From the NCBI GenBank assembly GCA_947090755.1, contig CAMUPF010000008.1, positions 3,901 through 67,900 of the forward strand: a DNA stretch of 64,000 nt, given 5' to 3'. How positions within the stretch are numbered: position 1 is the stretch's first letter; every line of letters begins with the position of its first letter. This document shows, one piece after another, positions 11,840 to 64,000 of this stretch. A program made the position numbers and the translations under genes. The notes beneath the pieces are model-generated. The model was not told the DNA's origin. It worked only from the letters and a program-made list of their open reading frames with translations, and did not search any database. This stretch comes from an uncultured Candidatus Melainabacteria bacterium (GTDB taxonomy: Bacteria; Cyanobacteriota; Vampirovibrionia; Gastranaerophilales; Gastranaerophilaceae).

Positions 11840-12979
11840 ATGAGCGTTGCAAAAGGTCAAAATTGCAGTATTAATTTTTTGAGATTTCTTTTTACATTCG
11901 GGATTTGCTTTATGCATCTTGTTTGTCAGGTGATTTCTCCCTATATTGCATATCCGTTGAACTATGGTAATTTTGCGGCACCTTCTTATGCTGTTGAATT
12001 ATTCTTCATAATGGCCGGTTTTTTCTTGTTTTTCAATAAAAAGCCGCTGGAGGAATACATTTCAAACCGTATAATAAGATTGTGGCCGTTGCTGGTGTTT
12101 TCAACTATTATTGCAGGGATTTTGAGAGCTTTGCATATATCAGGTATGTCATTGAAGTTTGATGATATTCTTAACTGCCTGTTTTTACAGGGAACAGGTC
12201 TGATGCAAGGCGGGGCGACTAATGGACCGGCGTGGTTCGTGGGTGTTTTGTTCTGGGTTTCTGTAATATATTATTATTGCAAAAGAGTACTTGGCAAGAA
12301 ATCATTTATTGCATTAATGATTGTTATGGCGGGTATTGGTTTGATAGTATTCGGAACCACAGGCAAGGCAAATCCGTTTGAAGGAGTCAGAGGATTCATT
12401 CTTCCCGCATGGGGGGGGGGGGGGATCTCTATGATGATGTTACGCGGTTTTACGGCTATAGGCATCGGATGTATTCTGGGAAAATTTCAGGAAATTTTTG
12501 CCGGAAGTCATGCTGCGCAGACCCTGCAAAGTGTTTCGGGCTCAAAGAAGCTTTTCACGGCTTTAGAAGTGATATTTTTCGTCGGACTGTGCGCAGTCTT
12601 ACTGGGAGGCAGCCTGATGAATATATATAGTTCTTATTTATTGGCTATGGGCTTATTTTTAATCGTGTTTTTCTTGTTTTTTAATAATTTAGGATATTTT
12701 TCCTCAAAAGTTCTAAACAGAAAAGTGTTTAATCTTCTCGGAGCTTATTCATACGCCATTTATATAATGCAGAATGTAGTATTTTATATTGTAGATTATT
12801 GTTTGAAAACTTACGAAAATCTAATTCCACATACAAATCTGGTTATAACAATTTCGATGATTTTATTTATTGTAATAGGAATTATTTCTTATTATCTGGT
12901 AAATTTCATCGTAGAAAAAACGGTACAGTTATACAATTTTATTCAAAGAGATAATATTTTAAAGGAGACAACTTTATGA
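11840..12979 (+). CDS. membrane acyltransferase family 3 (putative O-acetyltransferase), contains in-frame G14 tract
   Basis: Multi-TM ORF. The N-terminal FLRFLFTFGICFMH motif is typical of acyltransferase_3. ORF open from 11807, ATG 11840 follows AGGAG. The tract encodes WGGGG. Confidence 0.7.
   Translation: MSVAKGQNCSINFLRFLFTFGICFMHLVCQVISPYIAYPLNYGNFAAPSYAVELFFIMAGFFLFFNKKPLEEYISNRIIRLWPLLVFSTIIAGILRALHISGMSLKFDDILNCLFLQGTGLMQGGATNGPAWFVGVLFWVSVIYYYCKRVLGKKSFIALMIVMAGIGLIVFGTTGKANPFEGVRGFILPAWGGGGISMMMLRGFTAIGIGCILGKFQEIFAGSHAAQTLQSVSGSKKLFTALEVIFFVGLCAVLLGGSLMNIYSSYLLAMGLFLIVFFLFFNNLGYFSSKVLNRKVFNLLGAYSYAIYIMQNVVFYIVDYCLKTYENLIPHTNLVITISMILFIVIGIISYYLVNFIVEKTVQLYNFIQRDNILKETTL
12411..12424 (+). 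repeat. homopolymeric G14 tract (in frame, ON)
   Basis: Counted directly: 12411-12420 plus 12421-12424. Confidence 0.95.
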
Positions 12980-17973: not shown

Positions 17974-18695
17974 ATGAAAAGATTTCTAAGAAAAATTTTG
18001 GGTAAAAATAAAACGCAATATTATGACATTTGCGGGGATAATAATAAATTAATTATTATTGAAAATGGTGTTGAGCGTCTGGCGAACAAGGAAACTATTC
18101 TCGGTTTGTGGGTTTCGATACACGGAAATAACAATACCGTAAAGTTAGAACTTCCGATTCATTTTGAAAATTCATCTATTATAATTTCGGATTCTGATGA
18201 GGCTGACATTTTTATCCGCAAGACTCAGCATCACGTTAAAAATTTTTCGGTAAATTCACGCCTGCATAGCGGCCATAAACTATTTATTGATGAAGATTTT
18301 TATTGCAACGGGGCAACAATTTTGCTAAGAGAAGAAAACGCGTCGGTAAAAATAGGTAAAGATTGTATGTTTTCGTGGGGAATAACTATATGGACTTCTG
18401 ACGGACATTGTATTTTTGATAATACAACCGGCGAACTGTTAAATGACCCATCCGGGGGGGGGGGGGCCTCATCGGTAATCATGTATGGGTAGGCTGCAAC
18501 GTTAATTTATTGAAAAATTCGAAAATCCCTGACAATTCGGTCGTTGCGTTAGGGGCAATTATTTCTAAAAGATTTGATGAGGAAAATATTTTGCTCGTTG
18601 GCACAAATGAAGTTAAGAAAAGAAATATTCGATGGACAAGAGATTTTATAACTGATTATAAAAGGAGTAAATGTGAAAGTATTAATAGATTCTGA
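17974..18695 (+). CDS. left-handed beta-helix (hexapeptide) acetyltransferase, split by G13 tract (OFF frame)
   Basis: The upstream ORF ends 26 nt after the tract. The other frame reads LIGNHVWVGCNVNLLKNSKIPDNSVVALGAIISK, a classic hexapeptide transferase C-terminus. 14 or 11 G would fuse the two parts. Confidence 0.75.
18454..18466 (+). repeat. homopolymeric G13 tract
   Basis: Counted directly: 18454-18460 plus 18461-18466. Confidence 0.95.
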
Positions 18696-20197
18696 TTATT
18701 TTTTTATAAGGGATATGTATTATCGTTCCTGCGGCCATACACTTAATACTATTAATATTTTGAAACGTTTTTTCGGCGAAGATTTATTAAAGGATTTCAG
18801 GTGTGTTATTTCTGAAACTGTTTATTACCAGTTAAATGAAGAAGAATTATCCGGTATTAATCCTGTAGTGATTTTTGACAGGGAATTGCGGGATATTTTT
18901 GAGGATAAATTTATATCGCACAATGAAATTGTCGAAAAGTTTTATTACGGCAATTTGACCCCTAACAATCTACAGGATTTGAAGGCGCTTTATTCTCGCA
19001 AACTGGAAGGTTTTGTGCCGGATTTAGTTATGCAATTTGAATATCATAATAAATGTTATGACGATATTTTCCCTAAGGCGTTTAAATTAACCTTTCAGGG
19101 CGGACTTTTTAAAAGGGGAATTGGGCCTGAAACTTATATTATTGACCCCTCAGGCAGCTTTAAGGATTCATCTTTAAATATCTTTCGTGATGAAATTAAC
19201 AATTTCGTAATTTCTGAACAACAAAACACACTGATTGATAACTTTAAACGCCGCCTTAGTAATCTTATAAAAGAGAATACATCTTTTATTTCTACCTTAT
19301 TAGCGCCTTATAAAGAGAAGTTTGATTATCTTGTTTTGCTTCCGTTACAAATGAGTAATCATTATGGTTTTGATACTGAAACAGGATTTAAAACGCAGTA
19401 TGACTATCTTGAATATGTACTGGATAATGTTCCTAAAAATGTCGGGGTAATCGTAACAGAACACGACCATGGCCGTTTTCTTGAAGAAGGAACCTTCGGA
19501 AAAGGCGGATTCTTAGAATGGTTTGAAAACAAGTATGAAAATTTGGTATACATTAAAGAACTGCGGGGGGGGGGGGGGGTATTCCTCTCCGTCAATATAT
19601 TTCTTGCCGGAGGTTGATGCTGTGATAAATGTTTCGTCCTCAGTCGCCCTGACTGCAACTTTATTCGATAAAAGAATAATATCACTTGGTAAAACTTATA
19701 ATAATTGTTTTAAGGATACTCAGGGATTAGAAAACATTATTGAAGTTTTAAGCAAACCGGTTAGAAATAAAAATTCGTTTTTATTCTGGTTTTTGACTAA
19801 ATATGTTTTTTTCGAAAAACAGTTGAATGATAAATCTTTTATGTACCAATATTTATGTGATTCCATAGAAAAATTCAAGAATGAAGGAGTAACTTTTGCT
19901 TACTTTACGCAAATGAATGGAATCGAAGAGGCTTGTGATTCTATTGCAGGGTATATTGAAAATGTTTTCATTACAGAGCGCCGCAGGCAGGAAGATGAAA
20001 GGCTTGCGCAAGAGGCAGAAAGGCTTGCAAGGGAAAAGGAAATAGAAGAAGCAAGACTACGCGAAGAGGAGCGAAAACGGCGGATTGATAAAAAACGTGA
20101 AAGATGTAACCGGTTCGGAATCTATTACGAGGCAAAACATATTATTATCGGCCTGTTCGGGCTTAAAATAAAATTTAGAAACTATTTGGAGGAATAA
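18673..20197 (+). CDS. capsule-synthesis (KpsC/KpsS-like, PF05159-like) protein with C-terminal charged coiled coil, split by G15 tract (OFF frame)
   Basis: YLVLLPLQMSNHYGFD and VIVTEHDHG before the tract. YSSPSIYFLPEVDAVINVSSSVALTATLFDKRIISLGK after it, in the -1 frame. 14 or 17 G would fuse them. Family call by motif resemblance. Confidence 0.55.
19565..19579 (+). repeat. homopolymeric G15 tract
   Basis: Counted directly: 19565-19570 plus 19571-19579. Confidence 0.95.
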
Positions 20198-22988: not shown

Positions 22989-24149
22989 ATGAATAGTCCG
23001 TTAGTATCACTATTTATACCGTATTATAATGATAAAACTTTTTTAAGGGTTTCTATAGAGTCTGTATTGTCACAAACTTATAAAAACTGGGAGTTGATTT
23101 TGGTAAACCATGCATCAACTGATTCAAGTCGTGAGATAGCTCATTCATATAATGACAGTAGAATTAAACATGTTGACGTTAGCTGTAATTTAGGGGTTGG
23201 CGGTGGCGGGCTGCTAATGACAAAATTTCTGGAACAGGCTAAGGGCAAATATGTTAAATTTTTATGCGCTGATGATATGTTGCTTGATGATGGATTATCA
23301 ATTCTCGTTGATTATATGGAAAGTCATCCTGATATAGATTTTGCATTTGGCAATTTGAATTATATTAATGAAAACGGCAGGTCTCTGGGGAAAGATTTTT
23401 TCTCGAATAGAGAATATTTTTCTGTTGATAATACTGAAGCTGACTGTATACGTCTTTATTCTAAAGGATATAGTTTTTTACCGTATATTGGCAGTATTGC
23501 GAAACGCCAAATTTTCAATAATATAACAATAAACAAAACGATTATTATGACATTTGATATGTCTTTATGGCTTTCGCTGCTGTGTAAGGGATATAAAATC
23601 GGTTATATTGAACAACTTATCGGAAATTATAGAATTCATAAAGAACAGGCCTCTGCAATACAAAAAAGAAGACAGGCTGAAATGTTAAGTTCGCATGAAT
23701 GGGGAATATTTTGGAAGATTTTTCTTACTATTGAAAGCGTAGATTTGGCAAAAGAGGTATGGCCCGAGAGCGATTTAGCAGAGAAACTTACCCGTAAAGA
23801 AGATATCCCTTTTTTTGTAGCATATATGCTATTTGATTTCTGGATAATTTCGCAGGAAATATATGCTTATATCGCCTCCTTACTTGATGACGATTGCAAG
23901 CGTCAATACTTAATCGAAACATTCGGTTTTGGTGTCAGAGAGTTGAGGAAAGCCTGTCTGAATAAGTTACAAACTAATAATTCAGCGAAAATGAATTCCT
24001 TGAAAAAATATAAAACTAAACTTTATATGAAAGGCGTTAAGGATTTAAATTTACTGGATATGATTTATCTTGCGTTTAGAAAATTTATCAACTTAATTAC
24101 TTTGCGCCCTTTATTTAAACTGTTCAAAAAGAAAAACTATTCGTTATAG
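22989..24149 (+). CDS. family 2 glycosyltransferase (paralog B)
   Basis: VSLFIPYYNDKTFLRVSIESVLSQTYKNWELILVNHASTDSSREI. ATG 22989 after AAAGGA; the tracked ORF starts at TTG 22983. Confidence 0.8.
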   Translation: MNSPLVSLFIPYYNDKTFLRVSIESVLSQTYKNWELILVNHASTDSSREIAHSYNDSRIKHVDVSCNLGVGGGGLLMTKFLEQAKGKYVKFLCADDMLLDDGLSILVDYMESHPDIDFAFGNLNYINENGRSLGKDFFSNREYFSVDNTEADCIRLYSKGYSFLPYIGSIAKRQIFNNITINKTIIMTFDMSLWLSLLCKGYKIGYIEQLIGNYRIHKEQASAIQKRRQAEMLSSHEWGIFWKIFLTIESVDLAKEVWPESDLAEKLTRKEDIPFFVAYMLFDFWIISQEIYAYIASLLDDDCKRQYLIETFGFGVRELRKACLNKLQTNNSAKMNSLKKYKTKLYMKGVKDLNLLDMIYLAFRKFINLITLRPLFKLFKKKNYSL

Positions 24150-24686
24150 AATAAAGTTCATATAGCTTTCGTCGATTTTATCCTGTTCTATTCCGATGTA
24201 TCTTAGAGTTATTGAGGTTGAGGAATGGTTCAGGATTTTTTGTAGAAGCGCGATATCGTTAAACCGGATATAATGGTGATAACCAAACGTTTTTCTTAGC
24301 GAATGGGTACCAACTTTATATTTTATTCCCACTGTTGTGCAAGCCTTATTAATAATCCTGTATGCCTGATGCCTGTCGAGCCGGTTGTTATAAACCGTAG
24401 TAAACAGCGGCTCTTTGTCTTTTTTGCCTTCGATATGACGAATTATTAGTTGTTGTAATTTTTGATTTATCGGGAATCTTTTGTGTTTATGAGTTTTCTT
24501 TTCTGTTATACAAATATGGGTTTTGCCGCGAACATCCCCGACGTTGAGGCCCAGAATATCGGATATTCTGAGTCCGCTGTTTGTTCCCATAACGAAAAAC
24601 AGTAAATCTCTTAAACTTTGCTTTTCAAGAGTGTGTTCAATGCGTTTCAAATCATCTTTGTTTCTAATCGGTTCTACAATGTTCAT
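24144..24686 (-). CDS. small tyrosine recombinase (catalytic domain only, 180 aa)
   Basis: GLRISD (Arg), HSLRKT (His-x-x-Arg), NHSS and LRYIG (Tyr) catalytic residues. No N-terminal SAM-like or arm-binding domain. Confidence 0.8.
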   Translation of the reverse strand: MNIVEPIRNKDDLKRIEHTLEKQSLRDLLFFVMGTNSGLRISDILGLNVGDVRGKTHICITEKKTHKHKRFPINQKLQQLIIRHIEGKKDKEPLFTTVYNNRLDRHQAYRIINKACTTVGIKYKVGTHSLRKTFGYHHYIRFNDIALLQKILNHSSTSITLRYIGIEQDKIDESYMNFIL

Positions 24687-27270: not shown

Positions 27271-29215
<1,945 letters not shown>

Positions 29216-29296
29216 ATATTGCTCCTTCTTTTCTTACACATATCATAATATAACGAAAATCACAAAATATGTATATCCTTAATGAAAAATTAAGGA

Positions 29297-29325
29297 TTGA
29301 CTAAAGTGAAAAAATAATACATAAT
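29297..29325 (+). promoter_or_regulatory. sigma70-like promoter of pilin paralog 2 (conserved with copy at 63933)
   Basis: TTGACT 29297-29302, 17-nt spacer, CATAAT 29320-29325. The same architecture and downstream leader recur at 63933..64000. Confidence 0.6.
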
Positions 29326-29396
29326 AATTAATAAAGAAAGGCAGGCTGATCCTGTTCTACAATCGAACCCGAGTGAAACTTGGGAGAAAGGAAATT

Positions 29397-30415
29397 ATGA
29401 AAAACAATATTGTAAACATTTTGACAGGGGGGGGGGGCCTCTCTTAACAGGCTTCACTATGGCGGAGATACTTCTGTCATTAACAATAATCGGTGTGGTT
29501 GCGGCGATAACGCTTCCGTCGCTGACAGGCAACATTAACGAACGCACATGGAACACCCAGAGAAAAGCACTTTATGCCCGTATGAGTCAGGCGATTGCCC
29601 TAATGCCGGCGTTGAACGGTTACGGAACTTTGACAGAGGGCAACGAATCAACGTCAGCCGTCGACACCGCTGCCGAAACTTTCGTCACGGAAGGCCTTTC
29701 AAAAGTTCTCAAAATTAATAATATTTGTGACTCCGACCACCTCGCGGATTGCGGTATACCTACCCAATTTAATAATATCGGTGGAGATGTTGTATCTACC
29801 TGGCCTCAAACTTTTGTTGCTTTGAACGGGATGTTTAACGGTTCCTATGAAAACTATGATGGTTCAAGTGTAAATGTTATTTGGACTTATTCACAAACAG
29901 ATACGAAAGTCGCGGCATTTGAAACCGCAAATGGAGAAAGCGTTGCTGCGTATTATAATCCTTATTGTGTAGGTAATTTTAATGAAACAAATGAATATTA
30001 TATTCAACCTAAAGTTTGTGCAAATTTTATATATGACTTGAATGGATCTAAAGGACCTAATACTGTTGGGAAGGACATTGGGTTTATGACGGTATTTTAT
30101 CCTACTGATTCAGTTGTAGTTGCGCCTCATCCTTCGGTTAGACTTGCGACAAACCAGCGGGTTGTGCAGGCTGAGGCAGGGGCGGCCTGTTTCGCGCTGG
30201 ATAATGAAACAAGAGTTCCCAATATTCATGAGATTGCGTCTATGTTTACGAATAGGCTGTTAATGAAATCTACAATCACTGAAACAGGAACTAATGGGAT
30301 TTGGTCGGGTTCAAAATATTCTGCGTCTTATGACTGGTTATTCAACTGGGCTTGTGGAAAATGTATGTTGAAAGACCATGCTTGGACAGGAAATGTTTGG
30401 TGTATAAATCGTTAA
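29397..30415 (+). CDS. type IV pilin-like (prepilin) protein with DUF1566/Lcl-like C-terminal domain, paralog 2; leader interrupted by G11 tract (OFF frame)
   Basis: RBS GGGAGAAAGGA, ATG 29397, MKNNIVNILT, then G11, then TAA at 29445. With 12 G the frame reads GGGGPLLTG/FTMAEILLSLTIIGVVAAITLPSL and joins ORF 29459..30415. C-terminal RVPNIHEI..IWSGS..VWCINR. Confidence 0.8.
29427..29437 (+). repeat. homopolymeric G11 tract
   Basis: Counted directly: 29427-29430 plus 29431-29437. Confidence 0.95.
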
Positions 30416-61881: not shown

Positions 61882-63870
61882 TTACAATTTCGCGAAATTC
61901 GTAAGGTGGTTGTACTTATCCCTTAATAGGCTTAAAAGCGCCAGACGGTTGGTTTTTACGGCTTCGTCTTTGTCCATTACAAGTACGTCCTCAAAGAATT
62001 TTACAACTGCCGGATTGATTGCGACGAGTTGTGCCAGATATGCAGTATAGTCAACGTTTTCGTTGATTTTTGTGACTTGCGCGAAGAGTTCTTTTTCTGC
62101 CGTTTCTTTTAACAGGTTTACATTAACACTGCGGTTTTCAATCTCTTTTGTGATTCTCAACACTCTGTTTGCGCTTTCTAACAATTCAGGATTATCGAGC
62201 GTTGAAACAACTTTTACGCGTTCAATGTAGTCGTTAAGGTTAGATAATGCTCTTTCAGCGCACGCCTCTAGTACTGTCTTTTTATATGTGTCGTTTAAGA
62301 AAATGATTAAACGTTGGATGAAAAACTCTCTGATTTCATCTGCGCAATCGCGTTTGATTGGCAGAAGTTCAAGAGATTTGTAGATTAAAGCGTTGATATC
62401 GATTTTTAGGCCATATTCAAGTACGGTTCTTATAATACCAAGTGCCGCACGTCTTACGCCCAGCGGGTCAGAGGAGCCGGTTGGCTTCTTACCGTCAACA
62501 AAAACTGCACAAATATTGTCGATTTTGTCTGCAATACCTGCGATTTGGCCTTCGATTGATTTTGCGGTTTCGCTTTCTGCGTTAAGCGGGAAGTAATGTT
62601 CTTTAATACCTTCGCAAACTTTCGCGTCTTCGCCCGAAACTCTTGCGTAATCCGCACCGATAAAGCCTTGAAGTTCGGTGAATTCAAAAACTAATTTCGT
62701 TGTCAAATCCGCTTTTGCAAGCAATGCCGCGCGTTCAATTGTAGCAGAAGTTTGGCCGAGTTCTGACATCAAGTGTTTGCTTAAAGCAACCATTCTTTGC
62801 GCCTTGTCGTACATTGACCCCATTCCTTTTTGGAACGTAATACCCTTTAAGTCCTCAACATAATCACTAAGCGGTTTTGCTGTATCTTCGTTAAAGAAGA
62901 ACACGGCGTCGTCAAGTCTTGCTTTGATTACGCGAACGTTACCGGCCGCAATGTTTGCGAACTCATCGCCAAGGTAGTTTGTCATTGTAATAAATTTGTT
63001 GATAAGTTTACCGTCTTTGTAAAGCGCGAAATAACGCTGGTGAACAGCCATAACGGTTACGGTTACTTCTTCCGGAATCTCTAAATATTTCGGGTCAAAG
63101 TCGCAAACAGCAGGAACCGGATATTCTGTGATGAAAGTTACTTCATCAAGCAAATCGTCTGTGTAGTGTGGTGTTGCGCCGAGTTTTTCAGCTTCTTTTT
63201 TCGCTAATTCGATGATTCTTGCACGGCGTTCGTTCTGGTCTGCGATTACGTAATGTTTTCTCATCAGGTCTAAATATTCGTCAGGGTGAGAAATTTTGAA
63301 GGATTTTTCCGGCGCGAATCTGTGGCCGCGTGAAATGTTTGATGATTCTTTGTCAATAATTTTGATTTTCACTTCTTCACCATCAAGAATTGAAACAATC
63401 CATCTAATAGGACGTGAGAATTTTTCATCGTTTGCGCTCCAGCGCATAAAGTGAGAACCTTGCAGCTTCAAAATTAACGACGGAATATTTGATTGTAAAA
63501 CTTCAACAGCTGATTTCCCCTTGATTGAAATCTTTGCGTGAACATAATTGTCTTCAACGTACAAATCTTTCGGGTCGATTCCGTTTTTCTTGCAGAAGCC
63601 TTCGCCGGCTTTTGTTACGTTGCCGTTTTCATCATACGCTACATTTTTGATAGGGCCTTTAACGATTTTAACTTCATCCTTGCCTTCTTTTGAAAGCCCG
63701 TCCAAAATTACTGCTAAACGACGCGGGGTCGCATAAACCTTAATGTCTGAATAGTCGATTTTGTTTGTTGTTAAAAGCGTTTCAAAACTTTTTTTCAATT
63801 GCTCTATTGCGCTTGGTATAAATCTATATGGTAATTCTTCTGTTCCTATTTCTAATAAATATTTACTCAT
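61882..63870 (-). CDS. glyS: glycine--tRNA ligase beta subunit
   Basis: MSKYLLEIGTEELP N-terminus. 662 aa from ATG 63870 (after GGTGAG). Anticodon-binding C-terminal region. Confidence 0.9.
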   Translation of the reverse strand: MSKYLLEIGTEELPYRFIPSAIEQLKKSFETLLTTNKIDYSDIKVYATPRRLAVILDGLSKEGKDEVKIVKGPIKNVAYDENGNVTKAGEGFCKKNGIDPKDLYVEDNYVHAKISIKGKSAVEVLQSNIPSLILKLQGSHFMRWSANDEKFSRPIRWIVSILDGEEVKIKIIDKESSNISRGHRFAPEKSFKISHPDEYLDLMRKHYVIADQNERRARIIELAKKEAEKLGATPHYTDDLLDEVTFITEYPVPAVCDFDPKYLEIPEEVTVTVMAVHQRYFALYKDGKLINKFITMTNYLGDEFANIAAGNVRVIKARLDDAVFFFNEDTAKPLSDYVEDLKGITFQKGMGSMYDKAQRMVALSKHLMSELGQTSATIERAALLAKADLTTKLVFEFTELQGFIGADYARVSGEDAKVCEGIKEHYFPLNAESETAKSIEGQIAGIADKIDNICAVFVDGKKPTGSSDPLGVRRAALGIIRTVLEYGLKIDINALIYKSLELLPIKRDCADEIREFFIQRLIIFLNDTYKKTVLEACAERALSNLNDYIERVKVVSTLDNPELLESANRVLRITKEIENRSVNVNLLKETAEKELFAQVTKINENVDYTAYLAQLVAINPAVVKFFEDVLVMDKDEAVKTNRLALLSLLRDKYNHLTNFAKL

Positions 63871-63932: not shown

Positions 63933-64000
63933 TTGACGAAAAAAGAAAGATGATACATAATGGTTATATAAAGAAAGGCAGGCTGATCCTGTTCTACAAT
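63933..64000 (+). promoter_or_regulatory. second copy of the pilin-family promoter and 5-prime leader (gene continues beyond the window)
   Basis: TTGACG 63933-63938, 17-nt spacer, CATAAT 63956-63961, then ataaagaaaggcaggctgatcctgttctacaat, identical to 29331-29363. Confidence 0.6.

Follow-up and report, generated by a model that had tools for sequence, protein, structure and literature searches.

Phase-variable multigene families with conserved 5′ expression cassettes are represented by the opa genes of Neisseria and the vlp/vsp genes of Mycoplasma. The poly-G gene family examined here resembles them: promoter, UTR, leader-peptide coding sequence and slippery tract are shared by members whose mature bodies diverge, and gene conversion probably homogenises the 5′ ends. 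The differences lie in the slippery repeat, here a G11–14 homopolymer within the prepilin leader; in scale, with about 100 members in 1.8 Mb; and in the leader, which is structured in only about a sixth of those members.

The structured leader itself resembles 5′ UTR stabilisers such as the 5′ stem-loop of ompA and the STAB-SD of Bacillus thuringiensis cryIIIA. It shares with these a start-less sequence of Shine-Dalgarno (SD) type at most about 10 nt from the predicted 5′ end, stable hairpins, and a real SD thereafter, but its first hairpin is not flush with the 5′ end and it belongs to a repeat family rather than to a single gene. Rickettsia palindromic elements (RPE) are palindromic repeats that insert in frame into open reading frames, and the Correia elements of Neisseria, found in 5′ UTRs and transcribed together with the gene, change how the mRNA is processed and how stable it is. 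Like RPE copies, all 18 copies of the present repeat that lie between a poly-G tract and the FTMAE motif are open, whereas the leader copy at 29342–29384 is untranslated and has no in-frame start. Neither terminal inverted repeats of MITE or Correia type nor a TA or other consistent target-site duplication was found; the two hairpins are independent local stems, and the SD-like sequences that flank the unit are non-identical in most copies (AAAAGGAGT versus AGAAAGGAA, and others). Unlike both element types, the unit brings its own SD and can be tandemly repeated.

The REP and BIME elements of proteobacteria are short GC-rich hairpins present in dozens of copies, specific to a species or genus and sometimes located inside genes, and one end of a REP element bears a tetranucleotide tag, GTAG or CGTC (PMC3733652). 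Like these elements, the present repeat is a short GC-rich palindrome in high copy number, is transcribed with its flanking genes, often stands right behind stop codons, and has compensatory stems. Of the 17 UTR copies, 12 show CTAC (GTAG on the other strand) 2 nt to the 3′ side of hairpin 1; others have CTAT, and the generic copies read ATCCAYA. The fit to the published definition of the tag is uneven. This GTAG prompted consideration of a REP/RAYT identity, which was rejected as a canonical REP system because the Y1 transposase (PF01797) gave no hit in the genome and was found in one of eight genomes of the genus, with positive controls detected. The repeat further departs from REP/BIME in its stem of 4–6 bp with a fixed CUGAG loop, in its almost invariable sense orientation (REP elements occur in alternating pairs), and in having half of its copies within a single gene family, either in 5′ UTRs or in translated leader peptides. 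The leader is best described, by its resemblances, as a hairpin repeat of the REP/RPE/Correia kind, recruited to a 5′ UTR. A search of Rfam 15 (cmscan of 29200–29500, E up to 10) returned chance hits only (E 6–8, far under the gathering scores), and a literature search found no paper on poly-G phase variation or this hairpin repeat in Melainabacteria or Gastranaerophilales.

Promoter and leader of pilin paralog 2

The window, the 64,000-nt stretch of DNA analysed as a whole, corresponds to C8:3901–67900 of a 53-contig, 1.78-Mb genome, and its contig stops 30 nt past the window. GroEL is closest to that of Candidatus Gastranaerophilales MAGs, at 89–91% identity; Vampirovibrio follows at 70% and other Melainabacteria at about 65%. 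Positions 29297–29396 are read as the promoter and ~66-nt 5′ UTR of a poly-G phase-variable prepilin-like gene, pilin paralog 2, of this Gastranaerophilales bacterium. The features of this region and of its counterpart at the window end are collected in Table 1.

Table 1. Features of the paralog 2 leader and of the second leader copy, in window coordinates
Feature	Position	Strand	Basis
glyS, divergent from fourth-paralog promoter	61882–63870	minus	
Sigma-70-type promoter, pilin paralog 2	29297–29325	+	10/12 consensus positions
−35 TTGACT (spacer 17 nt)	29297–29302	+	
−10 CATAAT	29320–29325	+	
Predicted transcription start, paralog 2	~29331–29333	+	
163-nt block, 100% identical to window-end paralog; probable gene-conversion tract	29331–29493	+	alignment to L092
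Pseudo-SD AAGAAAGG at transcript 5′ end	29334–29341	+	read from sequence
Hairpin 1, CAGG-CTGAT-CCTG	29342–29354	+	fold and covariation
Hairpin 1, extended form GGCAGG/CCTGTT	29340–29356	+	
Conserved box TTCTACAAT, consensus YCYAYAAT, 3′ of hairpin 1	29355–29363	+	
Hairpin 2, CCCGAGT-GAA-ACTTGGG, adjoining SD	29368–29384	+	fold and covariation
True SD AGAAAGGAA	29385–29393	+	read from sequence
Start codon ATG, paralog 2	29397–29399	+	
Leader-peptide start MKNNIVNILT, then G11 tract (29427–29437)	29397–29437	+	
Promoter of fourth paralog, TTGACG-17-CATAAT	63933–63961	+	10/12 consensus positions
Second leader copy, to window end	63968–64000	+	33-mer match
Second copy, pseudo-SD	63971–63978	+	
Second copy, hairpin 1	63979–63991	+	
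Second copy, box	63992–64000	+	

A preliminary description of this DNA had reported a conserved promoter common to the two sites, with TTGAC, a 17-nt spacer and a −10 region. These elements are present at both, and the gap from promoter to shared leader is 5–6 nt in each case; the two spacers are unrelated in sequence. The promoter is not special to the pair. In the genome, at 39.6% GC, 119 homopolymer runs of G or C reach 8 nt or more, most often 13, and 102 of them lie 20–80 nt behind an SD and ATG. Upstream of 84 of these 102 poly-G genes stands TTGAC-N17-19-nAnAAT, which is therefore the family consensus rather than a peculiarity of two copies. The predicted UTR has a median of 18–19 nt and is this short in most members; it reaches 62–72 nt in those with two hairpins. 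Within the window, G tracts lie at 2890–2901, 12411–12424, 18454–18466, 19565–19579 and 29427–29437. Across this contingency-gene family of about 100 members two types of leader peptide occur, one like MKNNIVNILT and a longer one like MKN..LKSRDLW.

The G11 tract of paralog 2 begins ten codons after its ATG. As assembled the gene is OFF, its frame running into a stop. With G12 the frame is joined to G-FTMAE and reads MKNNIVNILTGGGGPLLTG followed by FTMAEILLSLTIIGVV, a prepilin signature.

The transcript is predicted to open with the pseudo-SD, which has no in-frame start codon downstream and whose final two G lengthen hairpin 1 through G-U pairs. Both leader hairpins noticed earlier appear in the predicted minimum-energy structure of the leader, and the 3′ arm of the second does abut the ribosome-binding site, ending on the base before the true SD. 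An SD-like sequence (AGAAAGG(A), AAAGGAG or AGAAAGTGAG) stands directly 5′ of hairpin 1 in all 17 UTR copies of the genome and, by eye in printed sequences, in most UTR copies of relatives. In the box, columns C22, T23, A24, A26, A27 and T28 are invariant in the own-genome alignment (A1), and the YCYAYAAT box is found in the translated and generic copies of the repeat as well.

The −35 element of paralog 2 directly adjoins an inverted repeat, CCTTAAT-GAAAA-ATTAAGG, at 29277–29295, 62–80 nt upstream of groES on the minus strand. This repeat is kept in seven of the eight species of the genus, differs from the CIRCE consensus, and may be a groESL operator.

The identical tract and the gene beyond the window

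Exact copies of the 33-mer ATAAAGAAAGGCAGGCTGATCCTGTTCTACAAT stand at two places in the window, 29331–29363 and its final 33 nt (none expected by chance in 100 shuffles), just as had been described. The remainder of the second copy, comprising hairpin 2, SD, ATG, G11 and a prepilin open reading frame, lies beyond 64000 and was read from a 103.7-kb ENA contig, NODE_236 (L092), found by an exact-protein look-up of glyS. NODE_236 matches the last 6000 nt of the window with 0 mismatches. Past 64000 it continues with hairpin 2, the SD, ATG AAAAACAATATTGTAAACATTTTGACA, G11, and then CCTCTCTTAACAGGCTTCACT ATGGCGGAG. The fourth paralog that had been predicted there thus exists in an independent assembly, and the ATG, poly-G and FTMAE by which it was to be recognised are all present, the last as G-FTMAE. 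Translated with 11, 12 and 13 G, it is OFF at G11 and gives a 330-aa prepilin-like protein at G12.

In the window's own assembly the body of the fourth paralog opens contig C38, whose first bases lie inside the poly-G tract. One external assembly supports the join of C8 to C38, and the overlap inside the genome's own assembly is only 11 nt. That a poly-G pilin gene lies downstream of the second copy is certain; that the C38 body is this gene is probable but not proven, as short-read assemblers can mis-thread an exact repeat of 163 nt. Another contig end, that of C28, bears a leader variant identical to that of the second copy. Contigs C8, C11, C17, C24, C25, C28 and C44 terminate in the leader and many others in poly-G, while C38 starts with CCCCCCTCTCTGAAC, which resembles an error-laden read-through of a poly-G tract. 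The leader repeat and the poly-G tracts are the break points of short-read assemblies of these genomes.

Alignment of paralog 2 to the fourth paralog gives 163 identities in 163 positions, from about the predicted transcription start to codon 32. The block takes in the UTR and ATG, the leader-peptide codons, G11 and the linker, and the mature helix as far as its twelfth codon. The earlier contrast between identical non-coding DNA and diverged coding regions is therefore wrong at the 5′ end, where the first 97 coding bases are equally identical. Downstream of the block (29494–29760, ~270 nt) the match falls to 42–53 of 60 per alignment block, and farther on to about half; upstream of it, the promoter block matches at 43 of 60. 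Selection does not require perfect identity of the leader, because other genomic copies of it differ at several positions. The tract is sharp-edged and crosses from UTR into coding sequence, and recent gene conversion or partial duplication is its economical explanation. Of the two accounts offered previously, a regulatory leader or recent conversion, conversion best accounts for the identity, and a regulatory (switching) role is unsupported. The descriptive part of this reading, that is, a promoter and a leader made of a repeat unit, together with the conversion tract, is given high confidence.

The 30-nt sequence coding for MKNNIVNILT is joined to differing UTRs and differing modules after the poly-G tract: elsewhere in the genome it follows a short UTR in C37 and leads into other downstream modules in C48. 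Variants of the unit likewise pair with different leader peptides and different post-poly-G modules. Family 5′ ends are, by this comparison of their parts, mosaics with breakpoints at the SD and the poly-G tract. At the orthologous site beside groES, paralog 2 and its leader are missing in all seven other species of the genus. This absence is in line with rapid turnover of the pilin family.

Structure, contexts and distribution of the hairpin repeat

The leader is, from the comparison of its copies, one unit of a genus-restricted, sense-oriented dispersed repeat. Its order is pseudo-SD, hairpin 1 (stem of 4–6 bp, CUGAG/U loop), YCYAYAAU box, hairpin 2 and SD. A structure-blind nhmmer search found 17 UTR copies in the genome, all located in the interval that runs from a promoter and its SD-like sequence to a second SD, an ATG and a poly-G tract. 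Ten are complete, each followed by SD, ATG and poly-G, and seven are interrupted by contig ends; a genome-wide search of this kind had been proposed, and every complete copy it returned stands ahead of a poly-G gene.

The repeat also occurs outside UTRs. In 18 poly-G genes a CTGAG-loop hairpin lies between poly-G and FTMAE and is read in the FTMAE frame, and in relatives G001 and G005 a near-identical CCGGCTGAGCCGGTTCTACAATTGAACCCGAGCAAG directly 3′ of poly-G is translated (PAEPVLQLNPSK...FTMAE). About 18 generic copies lie outside the family and consist of the hairpin-1-plus-box part: hairpin, ATCCAYAWTTGG, then ~30 nt more. Eleven of them start no more than 8 nt from the stop codon of an open reading frame on their own strand, the TGA of the loop is itself the stop codon in three, and the next gene starts 48–119 nt downstream in eight. 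Examples are C12:18129, C15:2798 and C42:5631, and the next SD and ATG often follow some 50–70 nt on. Membership of the 33-mer in a generic repeat upstream of unrelated genes had been named as a finding that would count against the earlier reading. The hairpin-1 half comes close to this, for it recurs at the stop codons of unrelated genes and in translated copies; the full unit with hairpin 2 and SD is found in this genome exclusively before poly-G pilin genes.

All UTR and translated copies are in sense orientation. Two generic copies are antisense to their flanking open reading frames, and one of these precedes a same-strand poly-G gene. In relatives, copies are also seen just upstream of the −35 element. 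Two units in tandem, each of hairpin 1, CAYAAT box, hairpin 2 and AGAAAGGA, occupy one 5′ UTR at L036:1114–1170 (G003) and at L070 (G005), so the unit, SD included, can apparently duplicate head to tail. At L058, L065 and L066 (G003/G007) a hairpin GGCA-CTCAG-TGCC lies ~45 nt past the post-poly-G hairpin, and its loop is the exact complement of CUGAG; a kissing-loop pair or an inverted, BIME-like pair of units is possible.

Covariance-model hits are confined to the genus, where seven of eight genomes have them, at 0 to 42 per genome; none of 44 other genera sampled from the family does. A pattern search of 53 genomes outside the genus yielded nothing but one match with 2 mismatches in unrelated sequence context. 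In G005:C1 (closed, 2.02 Mb), 29 of 31 model hits lie on the + strand at 0.21–0.71 Mb and on the − strand at 0.96–1.73 Mb, a pattern that reads as a replichore-like strand switch of the repeat, and hence of the poly-G genes.

The covariance model was built on a 15-sequence alignment of own-genome copies. There hairpin 1 pairs in full (100%) and three of its pairs co-vary; its stems in the genome are CAGG/CCTG (12 copies), GTGG/CCAC (3) and CCGC/GCGG (2), with loops CTGAG or CTGAT. Hairpin 2 shows no co-variation there, and departures are unpaired cells at its two end pairs. The genus set comprises 55 hits in 52 distinct rows. Across it hairpin 1 is again 100% paired (51 distinct sequences with letters there), all four pairs change on both sides, and relatives have GCCG/CGGC, GCCA/TGGC, CCGG/CCGG and other stems. 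Hairpin 2 is 87% paired, with G-U against G-C at 28 versus 7, A-U against G-C at 27 versus 5, and C-G against U-A at 25 versus 3; slid controls are 17–52% paired. The genus-wide alignment was fitted to the model, which favours structure. The search that yielded the 17 own-genome copies used no structure information, and no stem among them is broken despite variable linker columns. Compensatory changes, for which a covariance model had been recommended, are thus found in both hairpins, and by this comparative evidence both stems are shown to be maintained by compensatory substitutions. In some relatives hairpin 2 is swapped for an unrelated hairpin against the SD, such as TGGC-N5-GCCA or CGGG-N6-CCCG.

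On the opposite strand the G-U pair of hairpin 2, present in 28 sequences, would become an A-C mismatch; this favours the sense strand, most simply the mRNA. Folds of the UTR from about the predicted start show both hairpins in five copies, with the SD core unpaired at a probability of 0.93–0.96; when the window copy is folded with extra upstream sequence the value is 0.88. Single-copy fold z-scores are unremarkable (−1.2 and −1.0). A 150-nt fold produces a competing helix of CCUGUUCU with the SD, and this SD-sequestering alternative, confined to that fold, is not seen in the UTR-only folds.

Possible roles of the unit

In the proposed explanation, the 163-nt block is a tract of recent conversion or duplication, and the family of about 100 members in which it lies exchanges its 5′ modules at the SD and poly-G. 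The unit would act constitutively in cis in the mRNA and not as a sensor. Hairpin 1 would sequester the end of the pseudo-SD and the pyrimidine-rich spacer, while hairpin 2 would clamp the 5′ side of the true SD and leave the SD single-stranded. The 5′-proximal SD-like sequence, together with the hairpins, may slow mRNA decay, and a gene in ON phase would then be efficiently translated regardless of the sequence upstream. The sequence prerequisites of a stabiliser that would lengthen mRNA half-life are seen, with the pseudo-SD at about +3 to +11 and the hairpins after it. Against a 5′-terminal stabiliser, some 9 nt separate hairpin 1 from the predicted 5′ end, a less than ideal placement. Against any function, the unit is dispensable because most family members manage without it. 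The cis-acting mRNA function is a tentative proposal whose chances fall somewhat short of even, and the whole explanation, joining repeat-unit leader, conversion tract and constitutive cis-acting role, has about an even chance of being correct.

The main rival holds that the unit is a neutral or selfish passenger, a REP- or MITE-like repeat spread by a hairpin-dependent DNA mechanism, without function in the leader, and surviving only at harmless sites such as 5′ UTRs, in-frame leader peptides and intercistronic spacers. The appearance of the hairpin-plus-box module in three unrelated contexts, its restriction to one genus with very uneven copy number, and the many family members without the unit all fit such a repeat. 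Perfect CTGAG-loop hairpins with stems of at least 4 bp number 63, against 1–27 for 13 control loops. One generic copy is truncated at the orthologous site in a sister species (L059 versus L062), as expected under neutral decay, and a spread limited to hairpin-competent copies would likewise yield compensatory stems. The passenger reading nevertheless lacks a Y1/RAYT transposase in this genome and in six of the seven others of the genus, as well as terminal inverted repeats or a consistent target duplication, and it sits poorly with almost uniform sense orientation, with unbroken stems in all 17 own-genome copies, and with a UTR subfamily that has its own hairpin 2 exactly against the SD, replaced by other hairpins in relatives. 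It is a serious rival, though judged less likely than not. A role at the DNA level, as a recombination anchor or single-stranded hairpin signal for cassette exchange among pilin genes or for modulating poly-G slippage, would account for the visible shuffling of modules with breakpoints at SD and poly-G, for an identity tract that starts exactly at the pseudo-SD, for loci with copies on both sides of the promoter-SD-ATG-poly-G cassette, and for the strand bias in G005. This bias may merely follow gene orientation, ordinary homologous recombination requires no special signal, and the G-U pairs of hairpin 2 fail to pair on the complementary strand. A 180-aa tyrosine recombinase consisting only of the catalytic domain is encoded nearby at 24144–24686 on the minus strand (3 copies in the genome, up to 6 in relatives), and its presence agrees with that of the element in all eight genomes of the genus. 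A link between the two was rejected as not specific, since 24 of 45 family genera carry the recombinase and the element is missing in the 44 other genera sampled. A DNA-level role is accordingly considered improbable.

Readings in which the leader is a regulator are less favoured still. In a translational switch, CCUGUUCU (the 3′ arm of hairpin 1 and the spacer) would pair either with the pseudo-SD, leaving the SD open, or with the true SD, closing it. In the 150-nt fold, minimum-energy and centroid structures alike place CCUG.UUCU on AGAA.AGG around hairpin 2, and a pyrimidine-rich YUCY lies 3′ of hairpin 1 in all variants. Against this, the UTR-only folds of every copy prefer hairpin 1 with the SD open, no covariation can be assigned to the alternative helix since AGAAAGGA supplies both partners everywhere, and no Rfam family matches. 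CsrA (PF02599) is absent from all eight genomes of the genus, and a CsrA dual-site leader was rejected on this ground. Such a switch, which temperature, a protein or a small RNA could toggle, is highly improbable. Pilin genes elsewhere are known to be preceded by riboswitches, as in the c-di-GMP-II riboswitch of Clostridioides difficile pilA1, and the TAYAAT box looks like a −10 hexamer. A ligand-sensing riboswitch is opposed by the lack of any Rfam match even at E up to 10 and by an architecture limited to a pair of short, independent hairpins that form neither a conserved junction nor a pocket. An internal second promoter at TACAAT was rejected, as the sequence has neither a −35 nor a TGn element at proper spacing. 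Both are further opposed by the translation of the same sequence in other genes, and their combined likelihood is close to nil.

A more ambitious reading would make the unit, with ATG, leader peptide and poly-G, a portable expression-and-switch cassette grafted by recombination, its borders marked by the hairpin repeat, with which this genus of gut Melainabacteria puts new surface-protein genes under slippage control. Copies of the repeat are seen ahead of the promoter, within the UTR and behind the poly-G tract. Termination of ribosomes that read out of frame (OFF) or from upstream, at the TGA in the hairpin-1 loop, may be part of how the cassette works. This wider reading is speculative and, on balance, quite unlikely.

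The locus is part of a very large contingency family: some 100 poly-G pilin-like genes share a 1.8-Mb genome, in a gut lineage that has received hardly any study. Interchangeable front-end modules make up this family, and one of them is a structured repeat that can serve as UTR, translated propeptide or intercistronic spacer. If its hairpins alter mRNA life or translation, they would set the output of every carrier gene in ON phase; should they be recombination borders, they would account for the diversification of the family.
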